Below the pieces are notes generated by a model, which saw nothing but the letters and a program-made list of their open reading frames with translations, did not search any database and was not told the origin of the DNA. The position numbers were made by a program, and so were the translations under genes. Source: a candidate division WOR-3 bacterium (GTDB lineage: Bacteria > Hydrothermota > Tepidihabitantia > Tepidihabitantales > Tepidihabitantaceae). Taken from it: a DNA stretch of 64,000 bases. The stretch is taken from contig CBFGKH010000003.1 in NCBI GenBank assembly GCA_965649295.1, positions 190,615 through 254,614 on the forward strand, in the 5' to 3' direction. Numbering within the stretch: the stretch's first letter is position 1; every line of letters starts with the position of its first letter. Shown here piece after piece: positions 9,650 through 63,040 of this stretch.

Positions 9650-11575
9650 TCAGTCGAGCCTGACCACCTTGGCCCTAGCAACCCGACGCCCGTCCGTGGC
9701 AGCCACAAAGTAAACGCCAGGACCTACCTGTCGCCCGTGCCCGTCGCAACCATCCCAGAAGAACGTTAGACCGTCTGCTGCCAATTGATTGGATGCCAGC
9801 GAACGAATTAGCCGGCCGCTTCTATCAAACACTGAGATACGCGACCGGCCAAGACCGAACCCGGCTGCCGTAATCGCAAGCCTGCCACGAAAAGGAGCCG
9901 GTGTGCAGATGAGCTCTGGCTGTTCCCCGCTACTTGCAGTCGGTTCAGCCTGACCGGTCTGGGACGGCTGCCGAAACGCAACTGCCCGGCCCGGTGCAAC
10001 CGGTGCCGCAGTGGCTGGGTAGTTGTCATTGAAACAGTATTGAATCGCACTGGCGCAGTCAAGGTCCTGGATGCCGACGGTTGACGAATAGAAACCGGCA
10101 CCAGTCAGATATTGAAGAAGAATAGTATTGTCCTCGGTAGGCCGGCACCACGACCGGCCATAGATTACAATCTCGAACTTGTCTGGCGGATAGGGATTGG
10201 CGTAGTAGCCAACTGAGTCCCATTCGATGACCAACCAGTCGAACAAGGAATCGTAGTGCCACCAGACGCCGTTGCCTGTGGCAGGATAGAGGTCGTCCCA
10301 ATTCACGGCAATGAGGCCAGGTGGCATTGCTACATTCGGCAGCGGAGTATTGGCATAGGCGCTATTGGTCGTCGCGCCCGGTGCGACCCAGCCATTCGAG
10401 CAGATGGCGAGTCGGTCGAAAAAGGTGCCATAGCGCCGGAACCCAAAACCCGGCGGCAGATTGACAACTACGGTCTGGTCGTCAGCTAGGACAAGCCGCG
10501 TGCCCAGGCCATTGACCTCTATCCAATTGAAGCTCGGTGCCTCGGCAGCAAAATCGCCGTCGTCATAGGCATACTCGTTGTGCCGATTCGGCCCAGTTGG
10601 AAAGGAGACGCTATCGCCAATCGGTACCCGAATGTGCAGAGTCTCGACCACGACCAGTGACCCGAACAGGGTAATGTCGAAAACTGCGGTATCACCCGGC
10701 CAGGGAAAGTAGTAGCTGGCCCTTACCCGGAACCGATTGCCGTAGTTGGCCGCGGTCCCAGCCGGTGCGAGCGTGCCCCAGGCTCCGAGACTATCAAGCA
10801 CCTGACAACGGGGATGGCCGGTCCTCATTTCGCCGACAACAGCGACAAGGTTCGGACCGGTGTTGCGCAGCCCGAGCACGATGTCAGCCGCCTCGCCCGG
10901 GTCGAGCACGCCGTTGCGGCCGTCGTCAATCAATACCCACTCGCACTCGAGGTCGCGGCCAAGCGTATCAAAGAGACTGATGTCGTCAGCATAGGCCCAG
11001 GCCTCGCTGTGCTGCCTAGCGGTCGCCTCGCCGCTGGCGACCACGCCAACACTAATCGAACGAATCTGGGCACGGTTCACTTCAGGCAGGCTGTCGAGCT
11101 CGGTATTGATGGCCAGCACCCAGGAATCCCACCTCGCCGGAGCCGGAATGATGTGCAGCGCCGGGTTACTCCGCCACGGACAGCGCTGGGACAGGTTGGC
11201 AATTCGGGTCTCGCCCAGCACCGCGCCAGTTGAATCCCGGTAGGACAGAACGATTGCCGCTGCTGCCCATGCGCCCGGCGCGGTATCGAGTTCCCTTGCC
11301 CACAGGCTGGCACGGCACGAGAAATAGAGGTCGGTGCCGGTGACGGAGAGATTCTGTTCGAGCTTGGTGATTCCGCCATCATAGCGGTAGGCCAATAGCT
11401 CATAGTCAGGGTCGCGGACATAGCGCCGGCTGCGGCTGACTCTCCCCTGACCCGGACCGCCAATCGTGACTGTCCAGCCCGAATCAGTCCCTAGCTCGAA
11501 TCCGCCATTCTGCACCAGTTCAGTGGCAACGCTAACTGCCACCCCCAACATGAACGCAAGCAGAAACCGCAGCAT
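9650..11575 (-). CDS. Secreted protein: CBM-like jelly-roll + NGVLDPGE Ig-like + nidogen-like domain + FlgD-like CTD
   Basis: Signal peptide, ELVQNGGFE start, ICSNGW and WDDL motifs, WDGCDGHGRQVGPGVYF CTD. Paralog of the N-terminal third of 58043-63040. Confidence 0.85.
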   Translation of the reverse strand: MLRFLLAFMLGVAVSVATELVQNGGFELGTDSGWTVTIGGPGQGRVSRSRRYVRDPDYELLAYRYDGGITKLEQNLSVTGTDLYFSCRASLWARELDTAPGAWAAAAIVLSYRDSTGAVLGETRIANLSQRCPWRSNPALHIIPAPARWDSWVLAINTELDSLPEVNRAQIRSISVGVVASGEATARQHSEAWAYADDISLFDTLGRDLECEWVLIDDGRNGVLDPGEAADIVLGLRNTGPNLVAVVGEMRTGHPRCQVLDSLGAWGTLAPAGTAANYGNRFRVRASYYFPWPGDTAVFDITLFGSLVVVETLHIRVPIGDSVSFPTGPNRHNEYAYDDGDFAAEAPSFNWIEVNGLGTRLVLADDQTVVVNLPPGFGFRRYGTFFDRLAICSNGWVAPGATTNSAYANTPLPNVAMPPGLIAVNWDDLYPATGNGVWWHYDSLFDWLVIEWDSVGYYANPYPPDKFEIVIYGRSWCRPTEDNTILLQYLTGAGFYSSTVGIQDLDCASAIQYCFNDNYPATAAPVAPGRAVAFRQPSQTGQAEPTASSGEQPELICTPAPFRGRLAITAAGFGLGRSRISVFDRSGRLIRSLASNQLAADGLTFFWDGCDGHGRQVGPGVYFVAATDGRRVARAKVVRLD

Positions 11576-23644: not shown

Positions 23645-26641
23645 TTATCGGCTGATAGTGACGCGCCGGACAATGCGCTTGTCTCTGGTTTCCAGGCAAA
23701 GCAGGTACACTCCAGACGGGAATCGGCGCAAGTCCATCACGACCGGACCATTGACCGGTCCCGGCGATTGGTGCAACACGCTCCTGCCGGCAGCATCGTA
23801 TAGCCGAATATCCGCCTCTCCCGGCGCACCCAGTTCCAACTGCAATCTAAGCCAACCATCTGTCAGGATCGGCGCCAACTCGCTAAACATCTTGCCCAGT
23901 CGCGGCTCAGTCTGCTGAAATCGCGGTTCGTTTGCAGTCGGCCCAGGTCGAAGCGAACCAGGCTGACGGTACGCCCAGAACTCCAGCGACTTGTTTCCCT
24001 TCAAAACATAGATACGGCCCTGAGCGGCTACAATATCCGCACCGGCCTTGACTGTCTTCCTCCGGCCATCGCGGCCAATCGCCGGTATCGGATCGAGTGC
24101 AACCCACGAATTGTGCCAGGTCTCATAACGCCAGCACTCGGTCGTGTTGCCGCCTTTGAGGGCATAGATTGCTCCGTCAAGCCAAGTCCCCGCACTGCCG
24201 TCCTTGGCCTTTCGAGATTCACCAGAAGGACCAATGTAAGGCATTCCCGCCAGTGGCTGCGAACTCCATGTCTCACCAACCACATCATACCGCCACAGTT
24301 CGTGGATGCGCGGTTTATGGGCGTAGATCGTTCGATTGCCGTCATAGACCAAGAACGACCCATCGTTCCAACGAACACTAGGATTCGGCGCTCCCGGCAA
24401 GGGTTCCCAACTGTCATGCTCGGGCAGATAGCGCAGAAACTCGGCTGACGGCCCTTTCATCAAGTAGAGCCGCGCTGTTCCACCAGTTCCGACACAGACA
24501 ATATCGGCCCCAGCCTTGATCTTGCCTTTGCTTGTGTATGATGGCACATCCCGCAGACGAAGCCACGAATCACTGGCGATGTCATAACGCCAAAACTCCT
24601 GCGTATTGCCGCCCTTAATTGCATAAACGGCGTTCTGCCCATCAAAGTTCGCAGTCGCGCCCTTACCAAAGAACGCACGACCTTTCTCGCCAGCCGGCAC
24701 TGCCGTGCGCAGCTGCCAGCGGCCGGAACTAAGGTCAAAACTGTAGAAATCGGAGGTCCGGTTCCCCTTGGCCGCTAGGATTCGACCCGGACAGGCAACA
24801 AGCCAAGCTCCATCCTTTACCATCTTTGCCGAAGGCTCGGCTGTCAACGATGCAAGCTCCTCCCAGCCGCCAGCCGGCACCGATAGAACCGTGACCGTGG
24901 CCGTTGCCGAATCATTCGTTGGATTCTGATCCTGGTCCAACACCGTTCTAGCACTAACTGAGTACTCACCGGTCGCCGTCGGCGTCCAGCCTGCTGACAA
25001 TGTCCGAACGAGCGATGCGCCTGCAGCCAATGGAATGCCTGTTTCGGTGGTATCGTAAACAACGATACCCTGGCGTCGAATCACCACGCGCAACCCGAAA
25101 GTGGCGCTGTATACGCCGAAATTGCGAACAACCACCTCGGGTTGGACCACGCGACCCTGATAGATAGTGCCAGCCGGCTGGACAACCGTCGTGACGCCGA
25201 CGTCTTGGCCGGTCTGTCTCATAACCCAGATATCGTCAACGATCAGCTGGTTCAGACTCATGCCGCGCTTACGCAACGCAAGATGAATTGTCGTACCACT
25301 GTACCACTCAAGCGACGCACCCAATTCGAGGTAACTTGTTGACCCGACTGCTACACGCCGCAGCCGGGCAATTGTATCGGCAATGTTCTGGCCAGACATT
25401 ACCCAAAGCTCTAGCGTGTCGACCGGGCTCACCCCAGCAGTTCGCACAAAGAGCCCCACCGAGTCAACGAAACCTGCAGCCAGCACAAGCGGTGGCGAAA
25501 TAAGCCAGTCGTCATTCGGCAAGGTTGTTTCGAAGATGCAACGGACAAAAGACGCCCCGGTGTGCGCCTGGGAACCCGAAGACCGCGCCCAGAGGTAGTT
25601 ACCACCGTCGTTCGAGCGCGCAACCCAGCCGTTTGGTAGCGAAGCTGTGGTCCGGTCGAAACCCTCCGCAAAGTAGGTGCCGACTGGAAAAAGCCAGTCA
25701 TCGAAACGTGCCGTGTCGTTCGGCCGGGCCGGTTCCCCGCTGTTCCGAACCGCAGCCGCGAATGACCGTGGACCCGGCAACGTTCCACCATAGCGGTAGT
25801 TGAACACCACTGTTGTCTCCACGCCGGGACCGACCTGCGAAAGCAGAATCGAATCAAAGGGCACGTTATCAACTAGCCCCGTCACCCTAACGCTATGGGC
25901 CACATTCGTGCCGAGGTTTGCAATCCGTGCCCAGATTGTCTCGTCCTGTCCCGCCACCAGCGGATAGGAACTTGTGCTGCAGGCCAGCACACGGACGTCC
26001 ACTGGCAGATAATAAGTGACTATCAGCCGGGGCCGGCGCGATGAGCTGTTCCAGCCGTAGAACTGTCCGCCATAATCGGGGTCTTCGCTTGTCTCATCAA
26101 ATCCAAAGGCAATCCAATCCGCGGCCAGCCGACCCTGAATCGCTGCCACCGCTGCTGAATTCAATTGCTGCAGCACCCAAATCGGCACCGCCTGGTACGG
26201 AATCGGCAATGGCTCTGCCATCTCTGGCCCGGTCGTGATCTGTTGCATCAGCACGGCGCCCGAGTTTTCGACTACTGGGTCAACAGAAAGCAACCGCGGC
26301 ACAACTCCTGCACCATAGGGTTGCAGCTGACTTGCGCTGTAGCGCAGAGCCGCCGATACGATCACCGCATCGTCGGGAATCGCAGAAAGGTCGAACTTCG
26401 CCCACCCACGTTCAACCGCATTGACCAGATTACGACTGGAGATTGTTGCTGTGCTTGTTGATTGCTTTACATAACTCGTCCCGTCGAAACGAACGAAACC
26501 AGTCCAGTGGCCCTGCCACTGAGGGAAGACACTGTCACAGGCATCAACTGAAACGATATCGGTTGCGCTGCCCAATCCAACACCAGCAGCAACGCTACCC
26601 AGGCCTAACACAAGGCTCAACGTACTGAAGCACCTACCCAT
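23645..26641 (-). CDS. Secreted protein: DNRLRE-like + CARDB-like + cleaved-adhesin-like + Kelch-like propeller + T9SS-like CTD
   Basis: AKFDLSAIPDDAVIVSAAL...RPRLIVTY, NDDWLISPPL, ALKGGNT repeats, PSGVYLL CTD. Confidence 0.85.
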   Translation of the reverse strand: MGRCFSTLSLVLGLGSVAAGVGLGSATDIVSVDACDSVFPQWQGHWTGFVRFDGTSYVKQSTSTATISSRNLVNAVERGWAKFDLSAIPDDAVIVSAALRYSASQLQPYGAGVVPRLLSVDPVVENSGAVLMQQITTGPEMAEPLPIPYQAVPIWVLQQLNSAAVAAIQGRLAADWIAFGFDETSEDPDYGGQFYGWNSSSRRPRLIVTYYLPVDVRVLACSTSSYPLVAGQDETIWARIANLGTNVAHSVRVTGLVDNVPFDSILLSQVGPGVETTVVFNYRYGGTLPGPRSFAAAVRNSGEPARPNDTARFDDWLFPVGTYFAEGFDRTTASLPNGWVARSNDGGNYLWARSSGSQAHTGASFVRCIFETTLPNDDWLISPPLVLAAGFVDSVGLFVRTAGVSPVDTLELWVMSGQNIADTIARLRRVAVGSTSYLELGASLEWYSGTTIHLALRKRGMSLNQLIVDDIWVMRQTGQDVGVTTVVQPAGTIYQGRVVQPEVVVRNFGVYSATFGLRVVIRRQGIVVYDTTETGIPLAAGASLVRTLSAGWTPTATGEYSVSARTVLDQDQNPTNDSATATVTVLSVPAGGWEELASLTAEPSAKMVKDGAWLVACPGRILAAKGNRTSDFYSFDLSSGRWQLRTAVPAGEKGRAFFGKGATANFDGQNAVYAIKGGNTQEFWRYDIASDSWLRLRDVPSYTSKGKIKAGADIVCVGTGGTARLYLMKGPSAEFLRYLPEHDSWEPLPGAPNPSVRWNDGSFLVYDGNRTIYAHKPRIHELWRYDVVGETWSSQPLAGMPYIGPSGESRKAKDGSAGTWLDGAIYALKGGNTTECWRYETWHNSWVALDPIPAIGRDGRRKTVKAGADIVAAQGRIYVLKGNKSLEFWAYRQPGSLRPGPTANEPRFQQTEPRLGKMFSELAPILTDGWLRLQLELGAPGEADIRLYDAAGRSVLHQSPGPVNGPVVMDLRRFPSGVYLLCLETRDKRIVRRVTISR

Positions 26642-50852: not shown

Positions 50853-53800
50853 CTACCGCTCGATAACGAGCTTTCGGCTAAGCCGAACATCGCCGAACTC
50901 GAACACCGCAAAATAAACCCCGGCGGCAACCGCCTGGCGGTCACGGCCACGACCGTCCCAGCTAACGTGATGCCGGCCGCTCAGTCTTGGCCCATCAACC
51001 AGGCTCGTAACCAGTCGGCCAGCAGCGTCGTGGATACGAACCCGGACATTGGCCGGACTGGGCAGGTTGTAGCTGAGGACAATGCCGGCCCGGGTTGGGT
51101 TCGGTCGCACAGTAAGCCAGGGCTGCGTCAGGTCCTCGGCCGAACCAGCCTGCACCCCTTCCCGCTCCGGCCGACCGCTGAACCGGAATCCACTCGCCGT
51201 GTCACCAGCCGGCTTGTACTCCCAGAACTCATAGCCATAGCTGCCTTTGAGACAGAAGAGCGTTGTCTCAGCCGCAGCTAGGGCAGCGCCGCGCTTCACC
51301 TTCACCCGCGGCCCAGTCGGCGAATACGGAATATCGGTACGCCGGAACCAGGAGTCACCGGCAAAGTCGTAGCGCCAGAACTCGAGGGTGTTGCCGCCCT
51401 TGAGCGCATAGAGATAGCCGTTGTGGTAGGCCATCGCGCCACCGGCCTTCACCCGGCGGTTGGTCGGCCCAATCAGGGTTGTCTGGTCCAGTGACTCTGA
51501 CCAGACATTGAGCCGCAGGTCGAGACCATAGAACTCAGTTGTGTTCGAGCCTTTCATCACATAGAGAATCGAGTCACCATCATAGGCCAGGTCACCAGCC
51601 ACCCGCACGGTACGACGCCGCAGCGGGTCCGACGGAATATCAAGCACACCCGAGCCACCCACAATCGTATTCCACGAATCCCGCTGAATATCATAGCGCC
51701 AGAGATAGTTCGTACCGTTGCCCGGCATTAGATAGACCGAGCCTTGCGGCCCAGCCCCGAATGGGCCAGGCGAGACATAGGCCAGGGCTGCCCCCCGCTT
51801 GGGTGGGAAATAAGGCCGACCATCGTTGATTATTGGCTGCCTGATTTCTGGCGACGTGTGCCAAGTGCGGGTAGCGATATCGTAGTAGTAGAAGTCGGTT
51901 CGGCCTCCAGCCTTGATCGCCCAGATTCGGCCCCGGTCACCATCATAGGCCAGGTCACAGCCATCCTTGGCCCGGAATCCCGAAGGTAGCATCGGCATTG
52001 GCGGCAGAGTATCCCACTGACCGGTCGTAACGTCAAACCGCCAGAACTCGTTGGTATTCGAACCCTTCAACGCATAGACTGCTGCTTCATTCGGGACATA
52101 AACGAGCGATCCGCTCTTGACCTTCTTCCGATTCAGTCCTGGCGGAATGTTCTCCCGATTGGCCCATGACGAAATCCGAATCGTTGCGCTGACCACATCG
52201 TTGGTGCTGTCCACGTCGTTGGCAACATAGACCGAACAGACTGCGGTGAACGTCCCGATATCAGCCGGCCACGGCCGGGTCACAAAGGAGACAAGCGTAC
52301 TCTCACCTGGCCCCAGTCCGGGAATGACCGTATCTGCCGCATAGGCGGTACCGATGCGCAAAAACACTCGGATTGGGTTCCGAGTCGTGCCGTAGTTCTG
52401 CACCATCACCTTGGGGATAATCGTCCCGGGGAAGGAGTAGCCGCTTGGCTCAACAATCCGCCTTGCCGCTGCATCGGTCACGAGCTGATAGAAGAGAATC
52501 GCCCGGCCAGAATCAAGCCGGTTTCCCGGATCGTTGGTGGCGGCTGACATTGGCGGCATCGCGTAGAGATAATTCAACCCGTCGGTCCCGCCGCTATTCT
52601 CCAGACCAATTGACGCGCAACGGCCCCGGTTGTAGCGCAAGTCACCACAGTCAACATCAAGGTACTGGAACTTGAACAAGCCGTTCTCGGTAATCACCAC
52701 CTCAAACGAGATGGGGTTGGTCGTGTCCTGCGAACGCTCCCGGATCATGTCCTTCCAGAGGATGACACAGTAACGATTGGGCGCAACTCCGCCGTACCCA
52801 TACCAGACCTTGCCGCGACTGAAATCAGGCCTGCCTCCCAAGTCATCCCAATAGACGTAAAGCGAACGATTGGGCAGCACCGAATTGGGCAGTGGCCGCG
52901 GCAGCGAGTCATCGGTTCCGCCCGGGTTGCTCACGCCCACTCCCATCCAACCATTAGCTGAGACGTAAACATAGTTGTAGAGCGAATCGTAATACGGAAA
53001 ATCAAACCCGGTCGGGATATTGATCCGCCCCTGCCTGCCGAGCGCAATCGAACCACTCATCCGGGTCGTATCGAACCACTCGAAGGTCGGGCCACCGGCC
53101 GTGTCCGAATCAATCCAGGCATAACCCAAGGCGCTGGTGCCGGTGTGCTGGCCGCGAATGATATCGCAGGCATAGCGCTTGTCGTCGTTCTCCGGAATCG
53201 AGTCCTGCGGTGCTCCCAAGTGCCAGCTCCAGAGCCGAACACTGCACCGACCGGCCACATCCAGTACCCGGCCCGGAAAGACGATTACCGTATCCTGACC
53301 CGGCCGAAGCGAGTCAATCACTACGAGTTGTGAATAGACCATCACTGCACCGGTCGGGTCAACAATGTCGCACTGGGCAGCAACGCTATAGACCGTGGTC
53401 GTGCCAAAGTTCTCAAATCGGCCCCGCGGCACAATCGGCCGGTCGAACGGCCGCTGAATAAAGTCATACTCCGGTGCCAGCAGGGCGATCGTCCGCACGT
53501 CGAAAAGCGGCGGCACCACCGGCTCCAGATTCATCACTGCCCGCAGCATGTAATCGCCATTGGCTGCATCCGGCACAAACGTTCCATTCCGATACTGCCA
53601 GTAGGCAGCACCCGGACTTCGGCCGGCATCGCGGCCGATTGCCGGCGACTCCGGCGGCTCACCCACCTGCAAATAGAATAGATAGAAACTGCCCGAACCT
53701 GCCTGCCGAACGATCTTCTCACCTGAATCGGCCATGAAAACCGACTGCCAGCCAGTTGAACCCGGCGGAGCATACTGAACCGGCGAAATGTACAGCATCT

Positions 53801-54908
53801 CACCGGGCCGGCCCGTTCCGTCGTCCTCGAAAATGGCAAGCTGATAGCCGCAATGGGCCGGATTAGCCGGCGCCTGGAGATAGACACTGAGCGACTCGAA
53901 ATAGACCGGGAAGGTGTCAGGATCAAACTTCACGCCCCAGCCGTAGTGACCAACCGGCCACGACTCAAAACTGGCTGCAGTACCGTCGTCATAACGCAGC
54001 GTACGCGTGTTCGTCACCCGAAAGTTTCGCGTCAGGGTATCATTTGTCGTCACGAAATTCGACTCTGCCCAACACCAGACCTTGAAGAAGTAATCGCCGA
54101 TAGTCACCGGGAAAGGAGGTTCGAAGACCGTCTCCCGCTCAGCCGCGCCCGCCGCGAGATTGTAGATAGTATCTTCCCAGTAGGCGAGGCCGTTCATCGC
54201 ATCGTCATACAGGCTGCAGGCGGCGAAGACAGTGTCATAATCGTTAAGTCCGAGATTGCGGAATCTGACAACCGGAGTTAGCTGACCCGGCAGCATTGAG
54301 CTCGGCGGCGCGATGATGCCGGTGCAGGCCACGTCCCAACGCACAATCGAATCGGCAACGACCTCGACATTATCAACAAACCAGCAGTTGATGTAGGCCA
54401 GATTGCCGTCAAACACCCAGGCCACAACGACACTCTCGCGGTTGGTTGCTGCCGGCATTGGCAACGACTCCCTCACCGCCTGATTGACGCTGCTTAGGTA
54501 GTAGTCATGCAGGACATAGGGAAAAGTCTGACCGCCGTCAATTGAATAGACCAGCCGGGCCACGTATGGGTTCGATGACCAGCGCCAGAAATAGGTGCTA
54601 CAGATCAAGGCCACATTCTCCATACCCCGACAGTCAATCATCGGCGAGATTAGCGAATCTGGTGGCGGGTCGGCCAGGGCCGTGAAACTTATCGCCGCGA
54701 AGGGTGTCGGATGACCTCCCCAGGGCGCGCGAGCGCTGTCACGGTGCCAGTCATCGAACCGCGACTGGCCCGAGTCAGCCGGATAGATTCGCCAGCCTGC
54801 TGGCGGCGCGTTGGGTGACCATCCTGGTGCATCAAATGTTTCGGTGAAAAGACTGACGCCCAGACCGATGCTGGTCAGCAGGGCAACTCCAAGTAGCAAA
54901 CGACGCAT
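50853..54908 (-). CDS. Large secreted protein: adhesin-like, CARDB-like and nidogen-like domains + Kelch-like propeller + FlgD-like CTD
   Basis: AGGAG SD, signal peptide, VSANGW and WDDL motifs, ALKGSNTNEFW repeats, WDGRGRDRQAVAAGVYF. Confidence 0.88.
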   Translation of the reverse strand: MRRLLLGVALLTSIGLGVSLFTETFDAPGWSPNAPPAGWRIYPADSGQSRFDDWHRDSARAPWGGHPTPFAAISFTALADPPPDSLISPMIDCRGMENVALICSTYFWRWSSNPYVARLVYSIDGGQTFPYVLHDYYLSSVNQAVRESLPMPAATNRESVVVAWVFDGNLAYINCWFVDNVEVVADSIVRWDVACTGIIAPPSSMLPGQLTPVVRFRNLGLNDYDTVFAACSLYDDAMNGLAYWEDTIYNLAAGAAERETVFEPPFPVTIGDYFFKVWCWAESNFVTTNDTLTRNFRVTNTRTLRYDDGTAASFESWPVGHYGWGVKFDPDTFPVYFESLSVYLQAPANPAHCGYQLAIFEDDGTGRPGEMLYISPVQYAPPGSTGWQSVFMADSGEKIVRQAGSGSFYLFYLQVGEPPESPAIGRDAGRSPGAAYWQYRNGTFVPDAANGDYMLRAVMNLEPVVPPLFDVRTIALLAPEYDFIQRPFDRPIVPRGRFENFGTTTVYSVAAQCDIVDPTGAVMVYSQLVVIDSLRPGQDTVIVFPGRVLDVAGRCSVRLWSWHLGAPQDSIPENDDKRYACDIIRGQHTGTSALGYAWIDSDTAGGPTFEWFDTTRMSGSIALGRQGRINIPTGFDFPYYDSLYNYVYVSANGWMGVGVSNPGGTDDSLPRPLPNSVLPNRSLYVYWDDLGGRPDFSRGKVWYGYGGVAPNRYCVILWKDMIRERSQDTTNPISFEVVITENGLFKFQYLDVDCGDLRYNRGRCASIGLENSGGTDGLNYLYAMPPMSAATNDPGNRLDSGRAILFYQLVTDAAARRIVEPSGYSFPGTIIPKVMVQNYGTTRNPIRVFLRIGTAYAADTVIPGLGPGESTLVSFVTRPWPADIGTFTAVCSVYVANDVDSTNDVVSATIRISSWANRENIPPGLNRKKVKSGSLVYVPNEAAVYALKGSNTNEFWRFDVTTGQWDTLPPMPMLPSGFRAKDGCDLAYDGDRGRIWAIKAGGRTDFYYYDIATRTWHTSPEIRQPIINDGRPYFPPKRGAALAYVSPGPFGAGPQGSVYLMPGNGTNYLWRYDIQRDSWNTIVGGSGVLDIPSDPLRRRTVRVAGDLAYDGDSILYVMKGSNTTEFYGLDLRLNVWSESLDQTTLIGPTNRRVKAGGAMAYHNGYLYALKGGNTLEFWRYDFAGDSWFRRTDIPYSPTGPRVKVKRGAALAAAETTLFCLKGSYGYEFWEYKPAGDTASGFRFSGRPEREGVQAGSAEDLTQPWLTVRPNPTRAGIVLSYNLPSPANVRVRIHDAAGRLVTSLVDGPRLSGRHHVSWDGRGRDRQAVAAGVYFAVFEFGDVRLSRKLVIER

Positions 54909-55979: not shown

Positions 55980-56795
55980 GTGTCTCGAACATTACTCACA
56001 CTTCTGCTGATTGTCGGCACGCTCCTTGCGAACGCTGCCAATCCGCCAAACGGCAAGACCGGCCGACCGACCGAAGGCACTTGCGCTGACTGCCATTCTG
56101 GGCCTGCCGGCAGCGCCGATTCGACCGAACTCGCCGGCTTCCCAACCGGCGGCTACGTGCCCGATTCGTTCTATCTCCTTACACTGTCGGTCCGCTATGC
56201 CGGCCAGACACGTTGGGGCTTCGCGCTAACAGCAGTGAACGCGGCCAACACCCGCGCTGGCCAACTGGTTGTGACCGACTCGGTCAACACCCAGTACTCA
56301 AGTATCGAACCCGGCTACCTCAAACAAACCAGTACCGGCACACGCCGTGGCCAGAACGGCCCCATAACCTGGACATTCGGCTGGCGTGCGCCGGCGGCTG
56401 GCACCGGCCCAGTCAAGTTCTACTGGTGCGCCAATGCCGCCAATAACAACTCCTCGACCAGCGGCGATGCCATCTGTCGTGACAGTTTGACAATCGCCGA
56501 GTGGAGCGCAATCGAGGAGCCGGCACCAGCAGCAAGGCGAGTTGTCTGGCAGCTACGCAACCCAGCCCGGGACCGCGTCACTATCAGCTACGACGGCGAC
56601 GCCACGAGACCGGTCGAGGTTTACTCTGCTGCTGGTCGCCTGCTGCGGCGACTCCAACCGGTAGCTAGCCACGGGACATTGCTGGTCACTTGGGATGGTC
56701 GCGACCAACGCGGACGCCTGGTGCCTGCGGGCAACTACTTTGTCCGCCTCGGTAATGGCATCAATCGCCTGCTCAAGGTTCAAATTGCCCGTTAG
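55980..56795 (+). CDS. Reeler/choice-of-anchor-V-like protein with CxxCH and FlgD-like CTD
   Basis: TGRPTEGTCADCHSG, WTFGWRAP, NAANNN, WDGRDQRGRLVPAGNYF. Confidence 0.75.
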   Translation: MSRTLLTLLLIVGTLLANAANPPNGKTGRPTEGTCADCHSGPAGSADSTELAGFPTGGYVPDSFYLLTLSVRYAGQTRWGFALTAVNAANTRAGQLVVTDSVNTQYSSIEPGYLKQTSTGTRRGQNGPITWTFGWRAPAAGTGPVKFYWCANAANNNSSTSGDAICRDSLTIAEWSAIEEPAPAARRVVWQLRNPARDRVTISYDGDATRPVEVYSAAGRLLRRLQPVASHGTLLVTWDGRDQRGRLVPAGNYFVRLGNGINRLLKVQIAR

Positions 56796-56816: not shown

Positions 56817-57548
56817 GTGCCCCTTCTCTTGGTCTTCTTAGCAGCATTTCCCGGCGAACGTATTGCCAATCTGCCAACCGGTCAACTTCCCGAACCTGGT
56901 CTCTGGCAGATAAACATCTCCCATCGGTTTCTGCCGTCAGTCACTGCTCAAGGCTGGGGTGAGGATATCCTCCAATTCCTCAACGGCGCCGATGTCCGCG
57001 ATGTCATTGACAGGTCTTTGACCGAGCGTTTGACAATCGGCGCATCGCTTACCGTCGCGACTCGCGAGCTCGGACTGCACGCAGCTTGGGCTCCGCTTGA
57101 CTGGCTCACATTCTACCCCGAAGTCAGTGCCGATATCCGCCAGTTCGCCATCGAACGCACCTGGGCCAACATCGGCATTGCCGTTCATCGTCCATTCTCG
57201 GGCCGGCTAGCGCTGGTCGGCCAGCCCCGCCTGACAACCAACACCAAGCAGTTCTACGGGTCACTCGGCCTCGGGCTGAAGGCCGCGGTCCTGCCATCGT
57301 GGTGGCTTGGCATTGAGACCGAACCGGTCCTTGTCGGCCGCGACACCACAACAACCCTCGTTCCCTGGACATTGACGATCGACCGCCAGCAAGGTTGGCA
57401 CAACTTTGTGTTGACCCTTGGTTCATCACTGCGTCAGTCTGCACCAGGCTGGTTTCGCACCTATCGCCATGCCGACGCCTACGACGATATCGTTGATGTT
57501 ACCAAAGGCCACTTCCGCGTCGGTTTCAACATCCTCCGTAAGCTCTAA
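56817..57548 (+). CDS. Outer membrane beta-barrel (DUF5777-like)
   Basis: ISHRF, GWHNFVLTL, C-terminal GFNILRKL. Confidence 0.7.
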   Translation: MPLLLVFLAAFPGERIANLPTGQLPEPGLWQINISHRFLPSVTAQGWGEDILQFLNGADVRDVIDRSLTERLTIGASLTVATRELGLHAAWAPLDWLTFYPEVSADIRQFAIERTWANIGIAVHRPFSGRLALVGQPRLTTNTKQFYGSLGLGLKAAVLPSWWLGIETEPVLVGRDTTTTLVPWTLTIDRQQGWHNFVLTLGSSLRQSAPGWFRTYRHADAYDDIVDVTKGHFRVGFNILRKL

Positions 57549-57560
57549 AAAGGAGAAATC

Positions 57561-57983
57561 ATGCAACTCACTGCTGATATCCGTTGGGCCGGCCGAATGA
57601 CCTTCATCGGCAAGGCCGGTTCGAACCATCTTGTTCCGATGGACACTACCGCCGACTTTGAAGGCGACTCGTCCGCGACCAAACCTCTCGAGCTGGTGTT
57701 GATTGCCTTGGGTGGTTGCACCGGCATGGACGTTGTGCCGCTGCTCAAGAAGATGCGCCAATATGTTACTGGCGTCACCTTGAACATCACTGCGGAAAGG
57801 AGCGAGGAACACCCACGCGTCTTCACGAGCATTGCCATTGAATACGTCGTGACCGGCCGCGGCATTGAGGAAGAAAAGGTCAAACGAGCGGTTGAACTAT
57901 CCCAGGAGAAATACTGCTCAGTTTCGGCCATGCTGAAAAAGGCCTGCCCGATTAGCTATCGCTGGCGGATCGTCGAAGCCTAG
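57561..57983 (+). CDS. OsmC family protein (YhfA-like)
   Basis: LGGCTGMDV, KYCSVSAML. Confidence 0.9.
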   Translation: MQLTADIRWAGRMTFIGKAGSNHLVPMDTTADFEGDSSATKPLELVLIALGGCTGMDVVPLLKKMRQYVTGVTLNITAERSEEHPRVFTSIAIEYVVTGRGIEEEKVKRAVELSQEKYCSVSAMLKKACPISYRWRIVEA

Positions 57984-58042: not shown

Positions 58043-61000
58043 CTACCGCTCCACGACCAGCTTGGCAACCGCGGTAGAGCGAACGTTCTCGATGGTCACA
58101 AGATAGACACCAACCGCAAGTTGAGGCAGGTCAACCGCAACCATACCAGTCCTAAAGTGCCCGAGCGACATCCCCAAGACGCGCCGACCAAGAGCATCAT
58201 GGACAACAAGCTGAGTCGAGGGACCAAGCAACCCGGCAGTCAGGTAGAGGGTACCGGACTTAAACGGATTGGGGAAGATGCTGAACGCTGGCTCGTCATT
58301 CTCGAATCGGCCCGCCTGCACCCCTTCCTGGCTGACCGCCGGCTGATACCCGAAAGCCGCTCCTGGTACATACATCCAGAACTGATTGGTCTTGTTTCCC
58401 TTCTGAGCAAAGAAGGCAGCGCTGTCCGAATGATAGGCAACTCCGGCCCCAGCCTTCGGCTTCTTCTTGCGTGTGCCGCCGGCCATCGTCTGGGGCATTG
58501 ATTCATGTTCGACCCAGGTACCGGCCCCTGAATCAGGCAGGTAACGCCACCACTCCTGGGTGTTGTTACCCTTCAAGGCCCAGATGCTTGTTCCGTCCCA
58601 AGCCGCCGACGAACCGTCGCCGACCTTCTTGTTGCGTCGGCCAGTGACCGCACTGTTGAATGGTAGCGGCGTCAGGCCGACACTGTCCCAAGCCTGCGCC
58701 TGAACGTCATACCGGAACAGCGCGTTGAACCGACTCTGCATGACATAGATGTACCGAAAGCCATCGTAACAGAGCCAGGAGCCGGCATCGTACTTCGACT
58801 TGGTACTGTAGGGCAGATTCGGAACCGAGTAGTAGGTGTCACGCGCCACGTCGTAGCAGAAGAAGTCGAGCGTACCCGAGCCCTTGAGAAGATAGACGAA
58901 ACCAGAGTCACCACGGCTGACATAGACCATACTCCCACCACCCCGTGGTGCCTTGCCGCGCTGCTGCGACTGGTCCATCGCCAGCGGTATCGGCCGTAGC
59001 GCTTGCGACCAGGTCTGATTCGCAACATCGAACTTGTAAAGCTCGCGAGTGTTGTTGCCCTTCATCACAAAGACAAACCCACCACCCGCTGCCAGCGCCG
59101 CACCCTTGCCCACCGGCTTGGTGCCGACCGGTACGTCTGATAGCTTCCGCCAGACCGAATCAGCACCAACAAACTCGTAGAACTCGAGCGTCTTGTTTCC
59201 CCGCAGCTGGTAGATAGTCCGCGAGTCGGGCGAATACACCAGGCACCCCCCAGCACCAATCGGTGTTCCGGTTGCAGTATCAACCGCATGCCAGCCGCTC
59301 GGTTTCGGCGGACGGCTCGAATCCTCCTGAGTCACAAACTGCCACACTGCCGAAGCTGCTGTGCCACCCGGCCCGTTAGCCACCACCTGCCAGTAGTAAA
59401 CCTGACCGTGGTCGAGACCAGTGTACGCCACTGTCGTATCGGCGAGGCCGCCGGCCCACAAGCGGAGCGGAGGCATGATCGTATCAAGATAGACAGCGAA
59501 GTTCGCTGTCCCAGTTGCGCTGTGCCAGACGAGTGTGCCGGCAACCGGCAGTCCAGTCGCACCATTAGTCGGCAGTGCTAGTTCCGGTATGGCCGGAGCA
59601 GCAGCGACTGTTGTGAACGCCCAGACTGCCGACATGGTCTGACCACCTGCGTTCCTTGCCACCACTCGCCAGAAATACGTCCGGCTGTGCTGTAGTCCGC
59701 TGTAGCCGTAGCTCGTGCCTGCTTGATTAGGGCTGACAACCGCCACCGGTGGATTGACTGTGTCCAGATAGACATCGTAACCGGCCGCCCGCGCCGCCGC
59801 ATTCCAGACTAGCTGACCACTGACCGGCTGAGTGGTTGCCCCGTTACTCGGTGCCACCAGTACTGGCACCGCTGGCGCCTGAACAATCGTTACGAAGCTG
59901 TCTTGAGCGTAGGGCCCAACATTACCAAAGTCATCAGTTCCCCGTACCCGCCAGTAGTATCTTGTTCCGTAGTCTAGTGCAGCCGAATGCTGGTATTGCG
60001 AGACTATCGGTTCGGCATGGAACAGAAGATTGGCAAAGAGCCGGTCGGTCGCGACATCAATATCATAGCGTCCGATTGCGTCCTGACCTGACCTACCCAG
60101 CTTCGGTTTGGGTTCGCAGCCATCGCTCAGATCGGTCCAGTCGAAGACGACATCAACCGGTACTCCGGTACCATTTCCCGTCGGCGTCACCAGCACCGGT
60201 GCTGCCGGCGGGGTCCGGTCAAGGTCGAACTCCCAGACGCTTGACCAAGCACCGTAGGTGACGCCGCCATCAGCCGAAGCCCGCACCCGCCAGTAGTAGT
60301 GACCGTCAGCCAACGTCGCCGGCGCGTAGGTCAGCCCGGTCTGGCCGATGTCAATCGCACGGGGCGCTGCGAACCCGGCATCGGTGTCAACCTGAAGGTT
60401 GTAATAGTTTGCATCCGTGACCGCCTGCCAGGTAAATGTCGGCAACGTGTTCAAAAGAGCATTATGTGCCGGGGAGAGAAGCGTAGGAGTGCCGACCGAA
60501 AGCGTGGTGAATGCAAAGACTGTACTCCACGCGCCGGTATTGCCGGCATCATCAGTCGCCTGCACGCGCCAGTAGTAGGTTGTGCCGTATGCCAGCGTCG
60601 TCGGACAGACCAATGTCGTATTGGTCGTTGTCGTATTGACCACATAGGGCGAAGTCGGCGGATTATCAGTATCAACCTGCAAGCGATAGCTAATCGCATC
60701 CTTGCCCGAACCGCCGCCAAACGTGACTGCCGACCACTGAAACGTCGGTGTCCGCGATACGCCCGTCGCGCCGTTCGTCGGTAGCTGTAGGGTCGGCGCT
60801 GCTGGTGGCGTAGCATCGAGGCCGAACTGGGCTATCGCACTCCATGGGCCACTCAGATTGTTCACCCCCCGCACGCGCCAGTAGTAGTGGCCGTCCGGCA
60901 GGTCCTGACCTGGGACAACCTGTGACACAGTGAGCCCAGTTGCCGAATACTCAATCAAAGTGAATCCCGCATCATGGCTCACCTGAATCTCGTAACTGGT

Positions 61001-63040
61001 GGCTCCAGCCAGGTCGTTCCAGTCAAAGGTCGGCCGCCGCCCAGTCACCCAGCCGCCTATCGGCGATACCAGTGTTGGCTGGCCCATGACCAGCAACGCA
61101 CCGGTCTGCTGATTGTTGGCTGGATTCGCGTCACCGGCCAACGTGCTGGTGGCAGTCATCGTATAGTAACCCGGCGCCAGCGATGTCGTAATCGGGGCAA
61201 AGGATAGGCTACCTGAGGCACCGGCATTGAGCGCGATGCTCTGACTGTTGCTGTACCCGGACGAGATTGCGAAGGTGACCGGAATGTTCTCGCTCACGGT
61301 CCCGGCGTTACGAATCGTCGCTGTTGGCGTGAAGGTTGCCGTGCCCGGCGCATAGACGGTGCCACTAATCGGCACGGTAATCGCATCAACTGCCGCGTCG
61401 TGAATAACTGGACTGCTCCCCAGATACTTAATCGCCCGAGCCGTATCGAGCGGCAGCGCACCGGGATGGTAGCTGCCGTTGTAGAGGCACTGAATCGAGT
61501 GGCCCTGGCCGTTGTCCTGCATCCCGACGGTAGTTGACGTCGCACTGCCGTAGGCACGCTTGTATTGAGCAATTAGCACACTGTTGTCCGACCCACCCGC
61601 CGCATTACTGATAATGAGCTGAAACTTGTCGCGCAGCGGACTGCTGTAGTGCGCAATGCTGTCGTACTCGATTATGAAACGGTTGTTGGCCTGGTCATGG
61701 TAGTACCAGATGCCGTTACTGGCAGCCGGATTGAGGTCATCCCAAGCTAAGGCGACCATTGCCGGCATCAATCCGTTGGGCAGCGCGGTATTGTTCCAAG
61801 CGACGCTCGTCGTCACACCCGGTGCCACCCAGCCATTCGAGCAGATTGAGAGTTGGGTGTAATCCTGACCATACCATCGCCAGACAAAACCCGTTGGCAG
61901 AGTGAGCGTGATGGTCTGGTCGTCACCGATGCTCAGCCGCGTGCCGATTGGATTTATCTCAACCCAATTGTAGGTCGGCCGCTGTGGATAGCCGGTGTCG
62001 CCATCGTCATAGGCCTGGTAGATTGGTGGACAGGCGTCTGGAATCGGGTCGTTCGGCGTCATCACCCCAACAGTGATGTAGATCACCCTTGTTACGTTGT
62101 AGCCGCTGGCCGAAAGCAGCAGGGTGCAGGGCACAACTGTGCCCAAGGGCAGCAGCGGGCTGGCAGCCGCCGCGAACCGGTCACTGGCATTGCTCGCACT
62201 GCTGTTGGCCGGAATCGTTCCGAACGCGCTGGTCGAATCAGTGATTACGAAATAGGGGTTGCCGGATCGAAGAACGCCGGTGACGGTGTTGGCGGTCTGG
62301 TTGCCAACATTGTAGAGAACAAGCTGCAACTGGCCGCTTTCCCCTGGGTCCAACCGGCCGTTGTTGTTACCGCCTGGGGTCGGATCAAGCACGGTGAGCG
62401 GACCAGTGGTAAGATACGGCCCGTTACCAACACTCTGCAGCGAGAAGCTATCGGCGAGGACCCTCGCCACTGGGTTGGTTCAGCCGTCCTCAGTGTAGGT
62501 GTACAGCGATACCGTTACCTTTGCGACCTGGGTCGGGTTCACGCCCGGCAGATTGGCACTGAGCTCATCGGCGATGTTCAGTGTATAGCGCTCCCAGTTG
62601 TAGCTCGTCACATCAACCAGATGCAGGGTAGGGCTTGAAGTCCATGTGCAGTAACTGTCGTGCTTGTAGAAACGTGTTTCGCCTAGCACCACCGAAGCCG
62701 AGTTGCGATACTCAACGCAGACTGCGGCCACTGCCCAGCAAGTCGGCGAACTGCCGACAATCTGCATGTTGGCGGTGAATGATAGATTCAGCGCTGCACA
62801 GGGAACGGTGACTGTCTGGCTCAACCGTCCCCAGCCAGGGCCGTCGAACAACGAATCACGGGCCTCGTAATCAGGGTCCGGGTGGAACCCGGTGCTGCGG
62901 TCAATCGTAACTGTACCGACGCCGCCCTGCTGTGTAACCCATCCGGTACTCAGGCTCTGCTCGAACCCTCCGTTGATGAGCAGCTCCTGACCGAAAAGTC
63001 CGGTCACGACCAGGGCGACAAAAAGAACCACCTGTTTCAT
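58043..63040 (-). CDS. Putative 1665-aa secreted selenoprotein (U187): CBM-like + Ig-like + nidogen-like + CARDB + ~6 FN3-like + Kelch-like + T9SS-like CTD
   Basis: Joins ORFs 62480-63040 and 58043-62470 in frame across TGA 62482-62480. SECIS-like hairpin follows. Paralog 9650-11575 is continuous over this point. The signal peptide is only in the upstream ORF. Confidence 0.8.
62453..62468 (-). promoter_or_regulatory. Putative bacterial SECIS element
   Basis: UGA-ACCAACCCAGU(11 nt)-GGCGAG-GGUC-CUCGCC. Confidence 0.75.

Follow-up and report, generated by a model that had tools for sequence, protein, structure and literature searches.

Comparative evidence for a selenocysteine codon in the CBM-like domain of a probable cell-surface protein family from candidate division WOR-3 and allied phyla

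Bacterial selenocysteine (Sec) is known almost exclusively from redox enzymes and thioredoxin-fold proteins (2026 review PMC13188914). Predicted Sec proteins that leave the cytoplasm for the outer membrane include a TonB-dependent receptor of the FCYXU type (deep-Sep, PMC12013277) and, in Table 1 of PMC13188914, the GSU2204/MtrB-like barrel and the ExtKL cytochrome. The same table lists the CU-motif families SaoC, SaoL, HgcA, MbdU, and KCU-star, and short Gly-flanked Sec motifs in DUF1573 (UGC) and selenobacteriocin (SGUG). In E. coli K-12 fdhF, the gene of the cytoplasmic molybdoenzyme formate dehydrogenase H, the UGA is followed by 11 nt and then by GGU(U)GCA-GGUC-UGCACC, a stem with a bulged U and a longer lower helix. 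A vicinal Cys-Sec motif is also present in the GCUG tail of thioredoxin reductase, and the known dyads of this kind either close into a selenenylsulfide or act as ligands of soft metals or organometals. In most established selenoprotein families, Cys homologs are numerous.

We analyzed a 64,000-nucleotide stretch (hereafter the window) from the genome of a candidate division WOR-3 bacterium, a 2.28-Mb draft in 19 contigs. The initial annotation had proposed that two ORFs in the window form one giant secreted selenoprotein, and the underlying split-ORF layout was confirmed from the ORFs and their translation. On the minus strand, an ORF of 186 aa with an ATG start (62480..63040) ends with ...YTYTEDG at a TGA (62482-62480), which is followed by ACC AAC CCA (T N P) and, in the unchanged frame, by a 1475-aa ORF (58043..62470). 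The frame spanning 58043..63040 contains this single in-frame TGA and terminates with TAG. Judged from the comparative evidence described below, 58043-63040 very probably represents one gene for a 1665-residue protein with UGA187 decoded as Sec; this degree of confidence covers both the decoding and the single-gene reading. The full-length protein (P0001) was handled as the translation with C written for U. The features of the locus and its paralog, in window coordinates, are:

58043..63040, minus strand: putative selenoprotein gene, 1665 codons plus TAG, with TGA187 taken as Sec; homologs align across the TGA.
62990..63040, minus strand: signal-peptide-like N-terminus, residues 1-17 (MKQVVLFVALVVTGLFG), then Gln18 (-QE); by inspection.
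62738..62740, minus strand: Cys101 codon TGC in the motif SSPTCWAV, putative partner of Sec187 according to column conservation and mutual exclusivity.
62426..62989, minus strand: predicted N-terminal Sec-containing beta-sandwich (CBM-like), residues ~18-205; AF2 model and Foldseek.
62480..62482, minus strand: in-frame TGA, putative Sec187 codon; same column in homologs.
62453..62468, minus strand: predicted SECIS hairpin GGCGAG-GGUC-CUCGCC, 6-bp stem and 4-nt loop, 11 nt past the UGA; covariation and folding.
61406..62425, minus strand: Ig-like domain and conserved ~220-aa module, residues ~206-545; homolog search.
60503..60757, minus strand: best-scoring Ig/FN3-like repeat in a longer repeat run, residues 762-846; PF25788, E 6.1e-21.
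58985..59098, minus strand: Kelch-motif matches, residues 1315-1352; Kelch_6 E 1.9e-9, Kelch_3 E 3.3e-4.
58052..58279, minus strand: T9SS type A C-terminal sorting domain, residues 1588-1663; TIGR04183.
9650..11575, minus strand: paralog of 641 aa with the same N-domain, no Sec and no partner Cys; alignment.

In the RNA, the UGA precedes 11 nt (ACCAACCCAGU, 62479-62469), GGCGAG (62468-62463), GGUC (62462-62459), and CUCGCC (62458-62453). The likeness to fdhF that had been claimed for this arrangement was verified on the E. coli K-12 sequence for the 11-nt spacing and the GGUC letters of the apical loop. Both signals have a short GC-rich upper stem, whereas the stem here consists of six perfect base pairs and has no conserved lower helix. 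The bSECIS criteria quoted in section 5 of PMC13188914 are a loop of 3-9 nt, an upper stem of 4-16 bp, an MFE of ≤ -7.5 kcal/mol, a G in the first two loop positions, and a UGA-to-loop distance of 16-37 nt. All values of the hairpin lie within these ranges, with a 4-nt loop whose positions 1-2 hold G, a 6-bp stem, a UGA-to-loop distance of 17 nt, and -9.5 kcal/mol when folded alone. The AA/UU variant by itself folds at -7.3 kcal/mol. A 53-nt local fold was no better than its shuffles (z 0.10).

Covariation bore out the hairpin. Across 57 distinct sequences, 341 of the 342 stem cells were paired, and two-sided compensatory changes occurred at four of the six stem pairs. The changes of pairs 1 and 4, from G-C to A-U or C-G, fall on synonymous wobble positions, and pairs 5 and 6 impose coupled residue changes (K/F, E/S, R/L). 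None of 500 shuffles reached the covariation score, and slid controls paired at 18-66% only. Within the 2.28-Mb genome, the sequence GGCGRRGGTCYYCGCC is present at exactly four sites, all of them downstream of a family TGA, and its reversed control has no match genome-wide. The hairpin overlaps the strand A-x-V-x-A-D, which is conserved in non-Sec homologs too, and the conservation of the hairpin is therefore partly protein-level. What rules out chance is thus the conservation and not the folding energy.

The homologs carry names from candidate division WOR-3 and allied phyla. Among the homolog search rows starting within the first 70 query residues, 38 of 39 contain the TGA (counted by hand), the sole exception being the window paralog. 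The TGA occupies one common column in 19 of 21 aligned sequences and is shifted inside an insertion in the other two. The domain members in fetched loci with DNA have it at the same column in 61 of 62 cases. Several samples are biased towards Sec forms: one set of regions was chosen for showing the TGA, and one of the two patterns of a pattern search was the SECIS-encoded peptide. At order level (66 genomes), all but eight of the listed rows show one TGA, as does each of the 150 matches listed at phylum level (272 genomes). The genome itself holds four Sec copies, and up to nine matches per genome were obtained at order level. Of 336 representative proteins, the best 150 include 99 that stop precisely at the Sec column and 16 that continue past it. 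Cys stands at this column in five of the 16 (P0006, P0046, P0048, P0051, and P0072) and is the only recurring residue, the other 11 each having a different one. TGA and Cys, the two states to be looked for at position 187 according to the initial annotation, were both encountered, although Cys homologs are rare, with these five among the best 150 of 336 representatives.

The genome, which was scored 100% complete, also encodes the Sec machinery that such a protein had been expected to need. Profile searches detected, all above the curated cut-offs, selA (575.6 bits), selB (345.3 bits), and two selD genes with one in-frame TGA each, and aragorn located tRNA-SeC(tca) at C5:88305-88399. When 272 genomes of the phylum were tabulated by hand, 100 contained the domain and selA, seven the domain without selA, 20 selA without the domain, and 145 neither; selA is thus present in 100 of 107 genomes with the domain versus 20 of 165 without it. 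Two of the seven genomes with the domain but no selA hold selA fragments, and three domain-bearing genomes without any selA are 87-96% complete. These distributions point to a large family that occurs mainly in genomes with Sec machinery. On the comparative evidence, SelB and tRNA-Sec would decode UGA187 as Sec, with SelB presumably needed as for fdhF. Their recruitment would rely on a minimal fdhF-type SECIS (6-bp GC-rich stem, GGUC loop, 11 nt downstream) embedded in the codons of the last beta-strand of the N-domain (A-R-V-L-A-D). Termination at UGA187 would yield a 186-aa product without this last strand or the sorting domain, which should be non-functional; as proposed initially, selenium supply might govern how much short versus full-length product is made.

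The N-domain was modeled with AF2 at a pLDDT of 92.0 and a pTM of 0.88, and comparison of its fold agreed with the proposed CBM-like nature of the Sec domain. The top Foldseek matches were CBMs (E 5e-8 to 1e-5, prob 1.00, TMq 0.45-0.57) at only 12-16% identity, and the 217-aa N-domain matched no Pfam family at E ≤ 10 and no NCBIfam family at E ≤ 0.1. With type B CBMs (CBM4, CBM11, CBM22, CBM61; PDB 2c26, 1v0a, 1k42, 4xup, 2xom) the domain shares the beta-sandwich jelly-roll and the N-terminal position on large secreted proteins, but no Pfam CBM model matches it even at E ≤ 10. Because the pLDDT remains at 89-93 throughout model residues 161-190, the post-Sec strand belongs to the N-domain. The stop had been suspected to fall inside a domain, and the model is indeed confidently folded on both sides of the TGA, placing Sec187 in the predicted last hairpin loop, between the final two strands of the CBM-type beta-sandwich. 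The window paralog aligns continuously through the junction, as stated initially (36% identity across 553 residues, E 1e-77), which pairs its AWAYADDISL with ARVLADSFSL and an Arg (AGG) with the TGA. CBMs are not among the selenoprotein families in Table 1 of PMC13188914, and this 2026 catalogue of 119 prokaryotic families has no CBM-like, lectin-like or T9SS entry.

Of residues ~206-545, the first ~120 form an Ig-like sandwich and the remainder was modeled with low confidence and no clear fold match; a Pfam search of this region gave no match. The Ig-like domain and the ~220-aa module are common as a pair to many non-Sec paralogs, and many homolog matches span only query residues 200-545 and lack the TGA, with 35 matches in the same genome. 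Matches of fn3 and Big_13 to the Ig/FN3-like repeat were weaker than that of PF25788, and the Kelch motifs are probably part of a beta-propeller. TIGR04183 scored 30.5 bits against a cut-off of 23, which upholds the assignment of a CTD to the downstream ORF, and Pfam PF18962 remained below its cut-off (24.5 versus 27 bits). All aligned homologs start with a similar signal-peptide-like N-terminus. With such an N-terminus and a T9SS sorting domain at the other end, this is probably an exported protein that is displayed at the cell surface. Profile searches of the genome recovered a SprA-like gene above its cut-off (445.8 bits summed), two PorU-like genes below the 420-bit cut-off (369.5 and 340.4 bits), and a PorV-like gene below the 250-bit cut-off (87.3 bits).

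The column of Cys101 corresponds to position 85 of the profile A1, a biased sample built from Sec forms only, where Cys accounts for at least 90%. Among 116 representatives ending at the Sec codon, 16 have only Cys85, 83 only a Cys vicinal to Sec, one has both, and 16 have neither. With this rare exception the distant and the vicinal Cys are mutually exclusive, from which we infer that Cys101 is near Sec187. Paralogs without Sec also lack the Cys, as seen for P0015 and for the window paralog, which reads APGAWAA where the partner would stand. The protein described here represents the distant-Cys form (G-U-T with Cys101), most members have C-U-G in a Gly-rich flexible segment, and SGUG is the commonest local motif among the aligned family sequences. 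We lean towards a Cys-Sec dyad in this family, in which Sec187 would pair with Cys101 (STCW motif) here and with the vicinal Cys (C-U-G) in most relatives.

The C-U motif of most members resembles that of thioredoxin reductase and the CU-motif families of PMC13188914, but is located on a probable surface beta-sandwich with no flavin, Fe-S or transporter context. Neither the NCBIfam models of the CU-motif families nor any other NCBIfam or Pfam model named in Table 1 of PMC13188914 matches the protein; this includes PF07610 and TIGR04081, and the likeness to DUF1573 and selenobacteriocin ends at 3-4 residues. While the outer-membrane examples are barrels or cytochromes in single copy per genome, the present family appears as multi-copy, soluble, lectin-like T9SS cargo, and its surface location would also set it apart from the cytoplasmic fdhF product. 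Chemically, the dyad would most likely be a selenenylsulfide or else a site for soft ligands (metal, metalloid, chalcogen) on an exposed loop of the lectin-like surface module. A catalytic redox centre is less likely, because to our knowledge no reductant system exists outside the outer membrane.

Translation table 11 yields two ORFs, public annotation treats the 186-187-aa products as separate hypothetical proteins, and stops at TGA are frequent in this genome, all of which would fit a true stop, either between two genes or as a nonsense mutation within one, that leaves a secreted fragment of 186 aa and a separate 1475-aa protein from GTG 62470. However, such a stop would interrupt a confidently folded domain and recur in 61 of 62 homologs at a single column flanked on either side by conserved protein, the downstream ORF has no signal peptide and the upstream ORF no sorting domain, and a nonsense mutation would not be shared by several of the phylum's families and classes and outside it, as this TGA is. 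We consider this reading highly improbable. The chance that sequencing or assembly created the TGA, conceivable in a 19-contig draft, is negligible given that the same TGA is found in dozens of independently assembled genomes. Contigs from four coded runs of two studies, ~92-93% identical, span the site with no difference listed at the TGA and with synonymous changes on either side; elsewhere in the 601-base stretch they show differences at 38-49 positions. This speaks against the sequencing error raised as a concern initially. The runs of these related contigs are labeled hot springs metagenome. Stimulatory hairpins just past leaky stops are known from other systems, and the UGA could be read by a near-cognate tRNA (Trp, Cys, Arg) or through a local code change, with the hairpin as a generic stimulator. 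We regard this as very unlikely, since the hairpin agrees with the bSECIS model and with the geometry of fdhF, the domain follows selA in its distribution over the 272 genomes, and Cys, the sulfur analogue of Sec, is the sole recurrent residue at the column (5/16). The code is also not reassigned, because TGA ends 244 of the 697 open frames of ≥400 codons (35%).

A different question is whether Sec, once inserted, merely serves with Cys as a reduction-resistant structural cross-link, a selenenylsulfide replacing a disulfide in a reducing habitat. Se-S bonds resist reduction more than S-S bonds do, few representatives lack a partner Cys (16 of 116 with neither), the protein is predicted to be extracytoplasmic, and the hot springs labels of the related contigs would suit this explanation. 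It is nonetheless unlikely, if worth keeping in mind: in 83 of the 116 representatives the partner adjoins Sec, and an adjacent C-U cannot staple two parts of a fold together. The vicinal form thus counts against a purely structural staple, and members without both residues, including the window paralog, retain the domain. Returning to the dyad as a surface site, we tentatively propose a joint reading in which a lectin-like surface module carries the Cys-Sec pair as a non-catalytic hook that captures a soft metal, metalloid or chalcogen, or forms a covalent Se-S link to a ligand, outside the cell. As parts of the same tentative reading, the family would be lost rather than Cys-converted when a lineage abandons Sec, the SECIS would dictate the coupled amino-acid pairs K/F, E/S, and R/L in the beta-strand, and the Sec family may exceed all other selenoprotein families of candidate division WOR-3 and allied phyla in copy number.

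Judging from these homologs, the TGA is almost certainly the hallmark of an extensive family of cell-surface selenoproteins that had gone unrecognised. Public records label 187-aa homologs that end at the Sec codon "hypothetical protein", and since at least 99 of the best 150 representatives end there, both halves of the gene are mis-annotated and the selenoproteomes of these phyla are undercounted. With the spacing and loop of fdhF and a length of 16 nt, the minimal SECIS may serve for Sec-protein expression, and the family offers a natural experiment on Sec versus Cys, in which the Cys partner moves and Sec stays. An exported, multi-copy, lectin-like family with Sec in one loop would carry selenium biology to the outer surface of the cell on a non-enzyme fold.

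On sequence evidence, the window gene (58043..63040, minus strand) genuinely encodes a selenoprotein that had escaped annotation, and it is the type member of a large family. The fused reading across the in-frame TGA yields a protein of 1665 residues (P0001), with selenocysteine (Sec) at position 187. The layout proposed in the initial annotation, with two ORFs in the same frame, a TGA, 11 nt, a hairpin and a paralog continuous across the junction, is present in the sequence in all its parts:

63040 to 62483, minus strand: upstream ORF with an ATG start and 186 codons, ending at the TGA at 62482-62480
From the TGA through ACC AAC CCA to the TAG at 58043-58045, minus strand: continuation in the frame of the upstream ORF
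62468-62453, minus strand: hairpin GGCGAG, GGUC, CUCGCC in the post-UGA RNA, preceded by the 11-nt spacer ACCAACCCAGU
N-terminus of P0001: hydrophobic stretch MKQVVLFVALVVTGLFG, then Gln (read by eye)
P0001: Ig/FN3-like repeats (PF25788, E 6e-21)
P0001: Kelch motifs (sequence-model matches)
P0001 residues 1588-1663: T9SS type A sorting domain (TIGR04183, 30.5 bits vs a cut-off of 23)

The window paralog (9650-11575, minus strand) shares 36% identity with the window gene over 553 residues, across the junction, and has Arg opposite the TGA. Judged by eye, MKQVVLFVALVVTGLFG is a probable signal peptide. Gln directly follows the predicted cleavage site in nearly all homologs (Gln18 in P0001, 62987-62989; pattern G/S/A-Q-E/N-L-L), which recalls the 'Q-rule', the pyroglutamate N-termini reported in Bacteroidota secreted proteins.

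Conservation of the TGA was assessed by a six-frame search of 40 related genomes with the first 560 residues of P0001 as query. Among the 39 listed rows starting within query residues 1-70, 38 contained an in-frame TGA (hand count), the sole TGA-less row being the window paralog; rows spanning only query residues about 200-545 contained none. When 21 of these sequences were aligned with MAFFT, the TGA occupied one column in 19 and was shifted inside a small insertion in two, and the common motif around Sec was Y-T-x-S-G-U-G-T-P-x-A-[KE]-V-[FS]-A-D-D. The TGA was at the expected place in 61 of the 62 domain members from all fetched loci (57 distinct DNA sequences), a sample in which 20 regions had been picked because they showed a TGA. 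With a profile of the N-terminal Sec domain (A1), the domain was found in 58 of 66 genomes at the order level, with exactly one TGA in all listed rows but eight; four of these eight had none, two of them being partial matches that end before the TGA site. At the phylum level, 107 of 272 genomes contained the domain, and one TGA was present in all of the best 150 rows, beyond which lie 112 weaker ones. Four coded runs from two studies also supplied contigs, about 92-93% identical, that span the site; among their listed differences, beyond which lie 19 more, none falls at 62480-62482, and synonymous changes occur at 62483 and 62471. The public runs listed included no RNA data set. A pseudogene, an assembly error or two separate genes are therefore untenable as explanations of the interrupted frame, because the TGA is conserved across relatives and recurs in these independent contigs. 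A simple CGA-to-TGA nonsense origin was rejected as well: the paralog codon at the site is AGG, and the TGA is ancient.

The 16-nt hairpin was found in all 57 distinct sequences of a hairpin-anchored alignment (A2), starting 11, 14 or 17 nt after the TGA. Covariation, suggested in the initial annotation as a check, was evident: standard pairs filled 341 of 342 stem cells, two-sided changes occurred at four of the six stem pairs, none of 500 shuffles matched the observed covariation, and sliding the partner by 1-3 columns as a control lowered pairing to 18-66%. The changes at pairs 1 and 4, which join synonymous wobble positions, are explicable only in terms of RNA: pair 1 switches from G-C to A-U or to C-G, and pair 4 from G-C to A-U. 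At pairs 5 and 6, a first codon position is bonded to a second one, so that coupled residue pairs are forced on the protein: A-K-V-F-A is encoded by GGCGAA/UUCGCC, A-E-V-S-A by GGCGGA/UCCGCC and, in the window gene only, A-R-V-L-A by GGCGAG/CUCGCC. In the last beta-strand, the RNA structure dictates the protein sequence: at 62453-62468 and across A2, residues two positions apart in this strand are coupled as K/F, E/S or R/L.

Of the loops, 54 read GGUC and three AGUU. The hairpin conforms to the published bacterial SECIS model on the four points cited in section 5 of PMC13188914: the loop has 4 nt and the stem 6 bp, G stands in loop positions 1-2, and UGA and loop are 17 nt apart. Folded alone, the window hairpin has −9.5 kcal/mol. 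The sequence GGCGRRGGTCYYCGCC occurs four times in the own genome, each time at a family TGA, and its reversed control not at all. In E. coli K-12 fdhF (UGA, 11 nt, GGU(U)GCA-GGUC-UGCACC), spacing and loop are identical to those of the window hairpin, so that the parallel drawn in the initial annotation is exact in both respects, whereas the bulged U of the fdhF stem is absent from the window hairpin. Counting against the SECIS reading, the 53-nt local fold was no more stable than shuffles (z 0.10); shuffle folding is uninformative in this GC-rich coding region, and covariation was therefore used as evidence instead. The strand A-x-V-x-A-D, moreover, is conserved in non-Sec homologs too, which also counts against this reading and indicates that part of the hairpin sequence conservation lies at the protein level. 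An Rfam scan of 62350-62550 gave just two chance-level matches (E 2.4 and 6.8), and no element model matched.

All the Sec machinery that was searched for is present in the own genome (G000; 19 contigs totalling 2.28 Mb, completeness score 100%), namely selA (575.6 bits), selB (345.3 bits; C1:356367-358244), tRNA-SeC(tca) and two selD genes (G000:C1:318451-319377 and G000:C1:355394-356299), the second directly adjoining selB; selB and both selD genes lie outside the window. Each selD has one in-frame TGA, and SelD itself is thus a selenoprotein in this genome. The stem-loops downstream of both selD TGAs look unlike the family hairpin. TGA is not reassigned in the own genome, where 697 stop-to-stop frames have 400 or more codons; of these, 244 close with TGA, 348 with TAG and 105 with TAA. 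Machinery, conserved TGA and covarying hairpin together support the selenoprotein interpretation put forward at the outset.

A HMMER scan of 1.84 billion representatives with A1 retrieved 336 proteins at E ≤ 1e-3, of which 189 passed E ≤ 1e-10 and 77 passed E ≤ 1e-30. Among the best 150 of the 336, 99 terminate at the Sec column, 16 continue through it, three are shorter fragments and 32 were unclassified by rule, many of the latter ending 7-10 residues past the last aligned position. Cys, the other residue expected at the site in homologs, is present at the Sec column in five of the 16 read-through proteins. Cluster look-ups identified 187-aa clipped homologs named 'hypothetical protein', some from candidate division WOR-3 bacterium records, and a peptide-pattern search added homologs from Candidatus Krumholzibacteriota and Candidatus Eisenbacteria records. 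Of the five domain copies in the own genome, four contain Sec: the window gene, C2:195115-196767, and two with Cys directly before Sec (C9:82054-83631 and C11 near 6271). The Sec-less copy is the window paralog. Family members also occur in pairs, with a ~300-aa form (Sec domain and tail) divergent beside a ~650-990-aa form at fetched loci L020 and L024 (G016:C114, G024:C24); at L035, two members lie about 1 kb apart.

In the same 272 genomes, selA was detected in 120 (E ≤ 1e-60). By hand tabulation, 100 genomes had both the domain and selA, seven the domain only, 20 selA only and 145 neither. Five of the seven were re-searched, with selA fragments found in two and none in three (92, 96 and 87% complete); the remaining two are 74% and 76% complete. 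Taxonomic families without any selA (0/11, 0/14, 0/12 and others) also lack the Sec domain. As kin are not independent, this co-occurrence is a pattern and not a statistic. In several related genomes, selA and a family member are 0.4-8 kb apart (G038:C37, G040:C59, G052:C14, G053:C133, G178:C48, G196:C137:7846-10114), and in G196 the two are adjacent; the own genome has no such proximity. Provisionally, the protein family appears to be tied to Sec. The claim is provisional because of the sampling: one of the two peptide patterns was the SECIS-encoded strand, regions had been picked for their TGA, and A1 was built from Sec forms, so that non-Sec relatives score lower and are thinly represented among its top matches.

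The N-terminal ~200 residues had no match in Pfam (E ≤ 10) or NCBIfam (E ≤ 0.1). An AlphaFold2 model from the 21-sequence alignment was all-beta (pLDDT 92.0, pTM 0.88), and Foldseek matched it to CBM-type beta-sandwiches (2c26, CBM61 2xom, CBM11 1v0a, CBM4-2 1k42, CBM22 4xup) and to lectin-like domains of phage tailspikes (E 5e-8 to 1e-5, TM 0.45 to 0.57, identity 12 to 16%), a fold that bears out the 'CBM-like domain' of the initial annotation. Sec is model position 171, in the loop between the last two strands; given the confidence of 89-93 across it, termination at the TGA would cost the domain an integral strand. Four settings of the domain were seen: ~650-aa proteins with Sec domain, Ig-like domain, a conserved ~220-aa module and sorting tail; ~300-aa proteins with Sec domain then tail only; ~230-250-aa proteins consisting of the Sec domain alone; and giants such as P0001. 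Its behaviour is therefore that of a self-standing surface module. The Ig-like domain and ~220-aa module (window 61406-62425) had 35 matches in the own genome, and the pair recurs without the Sec domain in dozens of large secreted proteins of the own genome and its relatives. In the predicted structure of residues about 207-558 (mean pLDDT 69.9), the first half is Ig-like; the pair had no Pfam match, and the ~220-aa module, which had no clear fold match, may resemble a NIDO-type domain.

About 85 residues before Sec stands another conserved motif, GG[ST]STCWP, which contains Cys101 of P0001. In more distant members, Ala replaces this Cys, and a Cys directly precedes Sec (D-C-U-G, G-C-U-G, N-C-U-G). 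Among 116 representative proteins ending at the Sec column and covering both positions, 16 had the distant Cys only, 83 the vicinal Cys only, one had both and 16 had neither, several of the last with a Cys two or three residues before the end. Sec-less members also lack the Cys, as in the window paralog (APGAWAA, Arg) and the read-through homolog P0015 (no Cys, Val at the column). We infer that Sec would work with a nearby thiol. The dominance of the vicinal form disfavours a mere structural staple, and the extracellular location disfavours a recycled redox catalyst. Our best guess, and only that, is that the Cys-Sec dyad forms a selenenylsulfide or a soft-ligand site on an exposed loop.

The own genome encodes an SprA-like translocon protein that scores over its cut-off, whereas its PorU-like and PorV-like proteins are divergent and score below theirs. 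A PorU-like gene and, after it, a PorV-like gene (C9:70389-75006) are about 7 kb upstream of the C-U-type member C9:82054-83631. The window (1-64000) is crowded with genes for very large secreted proteins that end in FlgD_ig or Por_Secre_tail domains and contain Kelch motifs and LVIVD repeats, for example at 50853-54908, 19859-22729, 23645-26641, 1172-3385 and 3980-6205. Next to the selenoprotein gene are:

57561-57983, plus strand: OsmC-like gene (PF02566, E 7.8e-20), converging on the 3' end of the selenoprotein gene
56817-57548: DUF5777 gene
55980-56795: gene for a small FlgD_ig-tail protein

OsmC-like proteins are a listed selenoprotein family; the gene at 57561-57983 has no in-frame TGA, and no functional link was found from these three neighbours.

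Table 1 of a 2026 review (PMC13188914) contains 119 selenoprotein families and subfamilies, with no CBM-like, lectin-like or T9SS entry in that table, and the deep-Sep paper (PMC12013277) describes at least nine other new families. A literature search, confined to titles, abstracts and article passages, returned no publication on this family. Sec decoding here follows the standard bacterial mechanism, and the novelty lies in the protein family, in its fold, location and copy number, in how scarce Cys forms are and in the shift of the Cys partner between positions.
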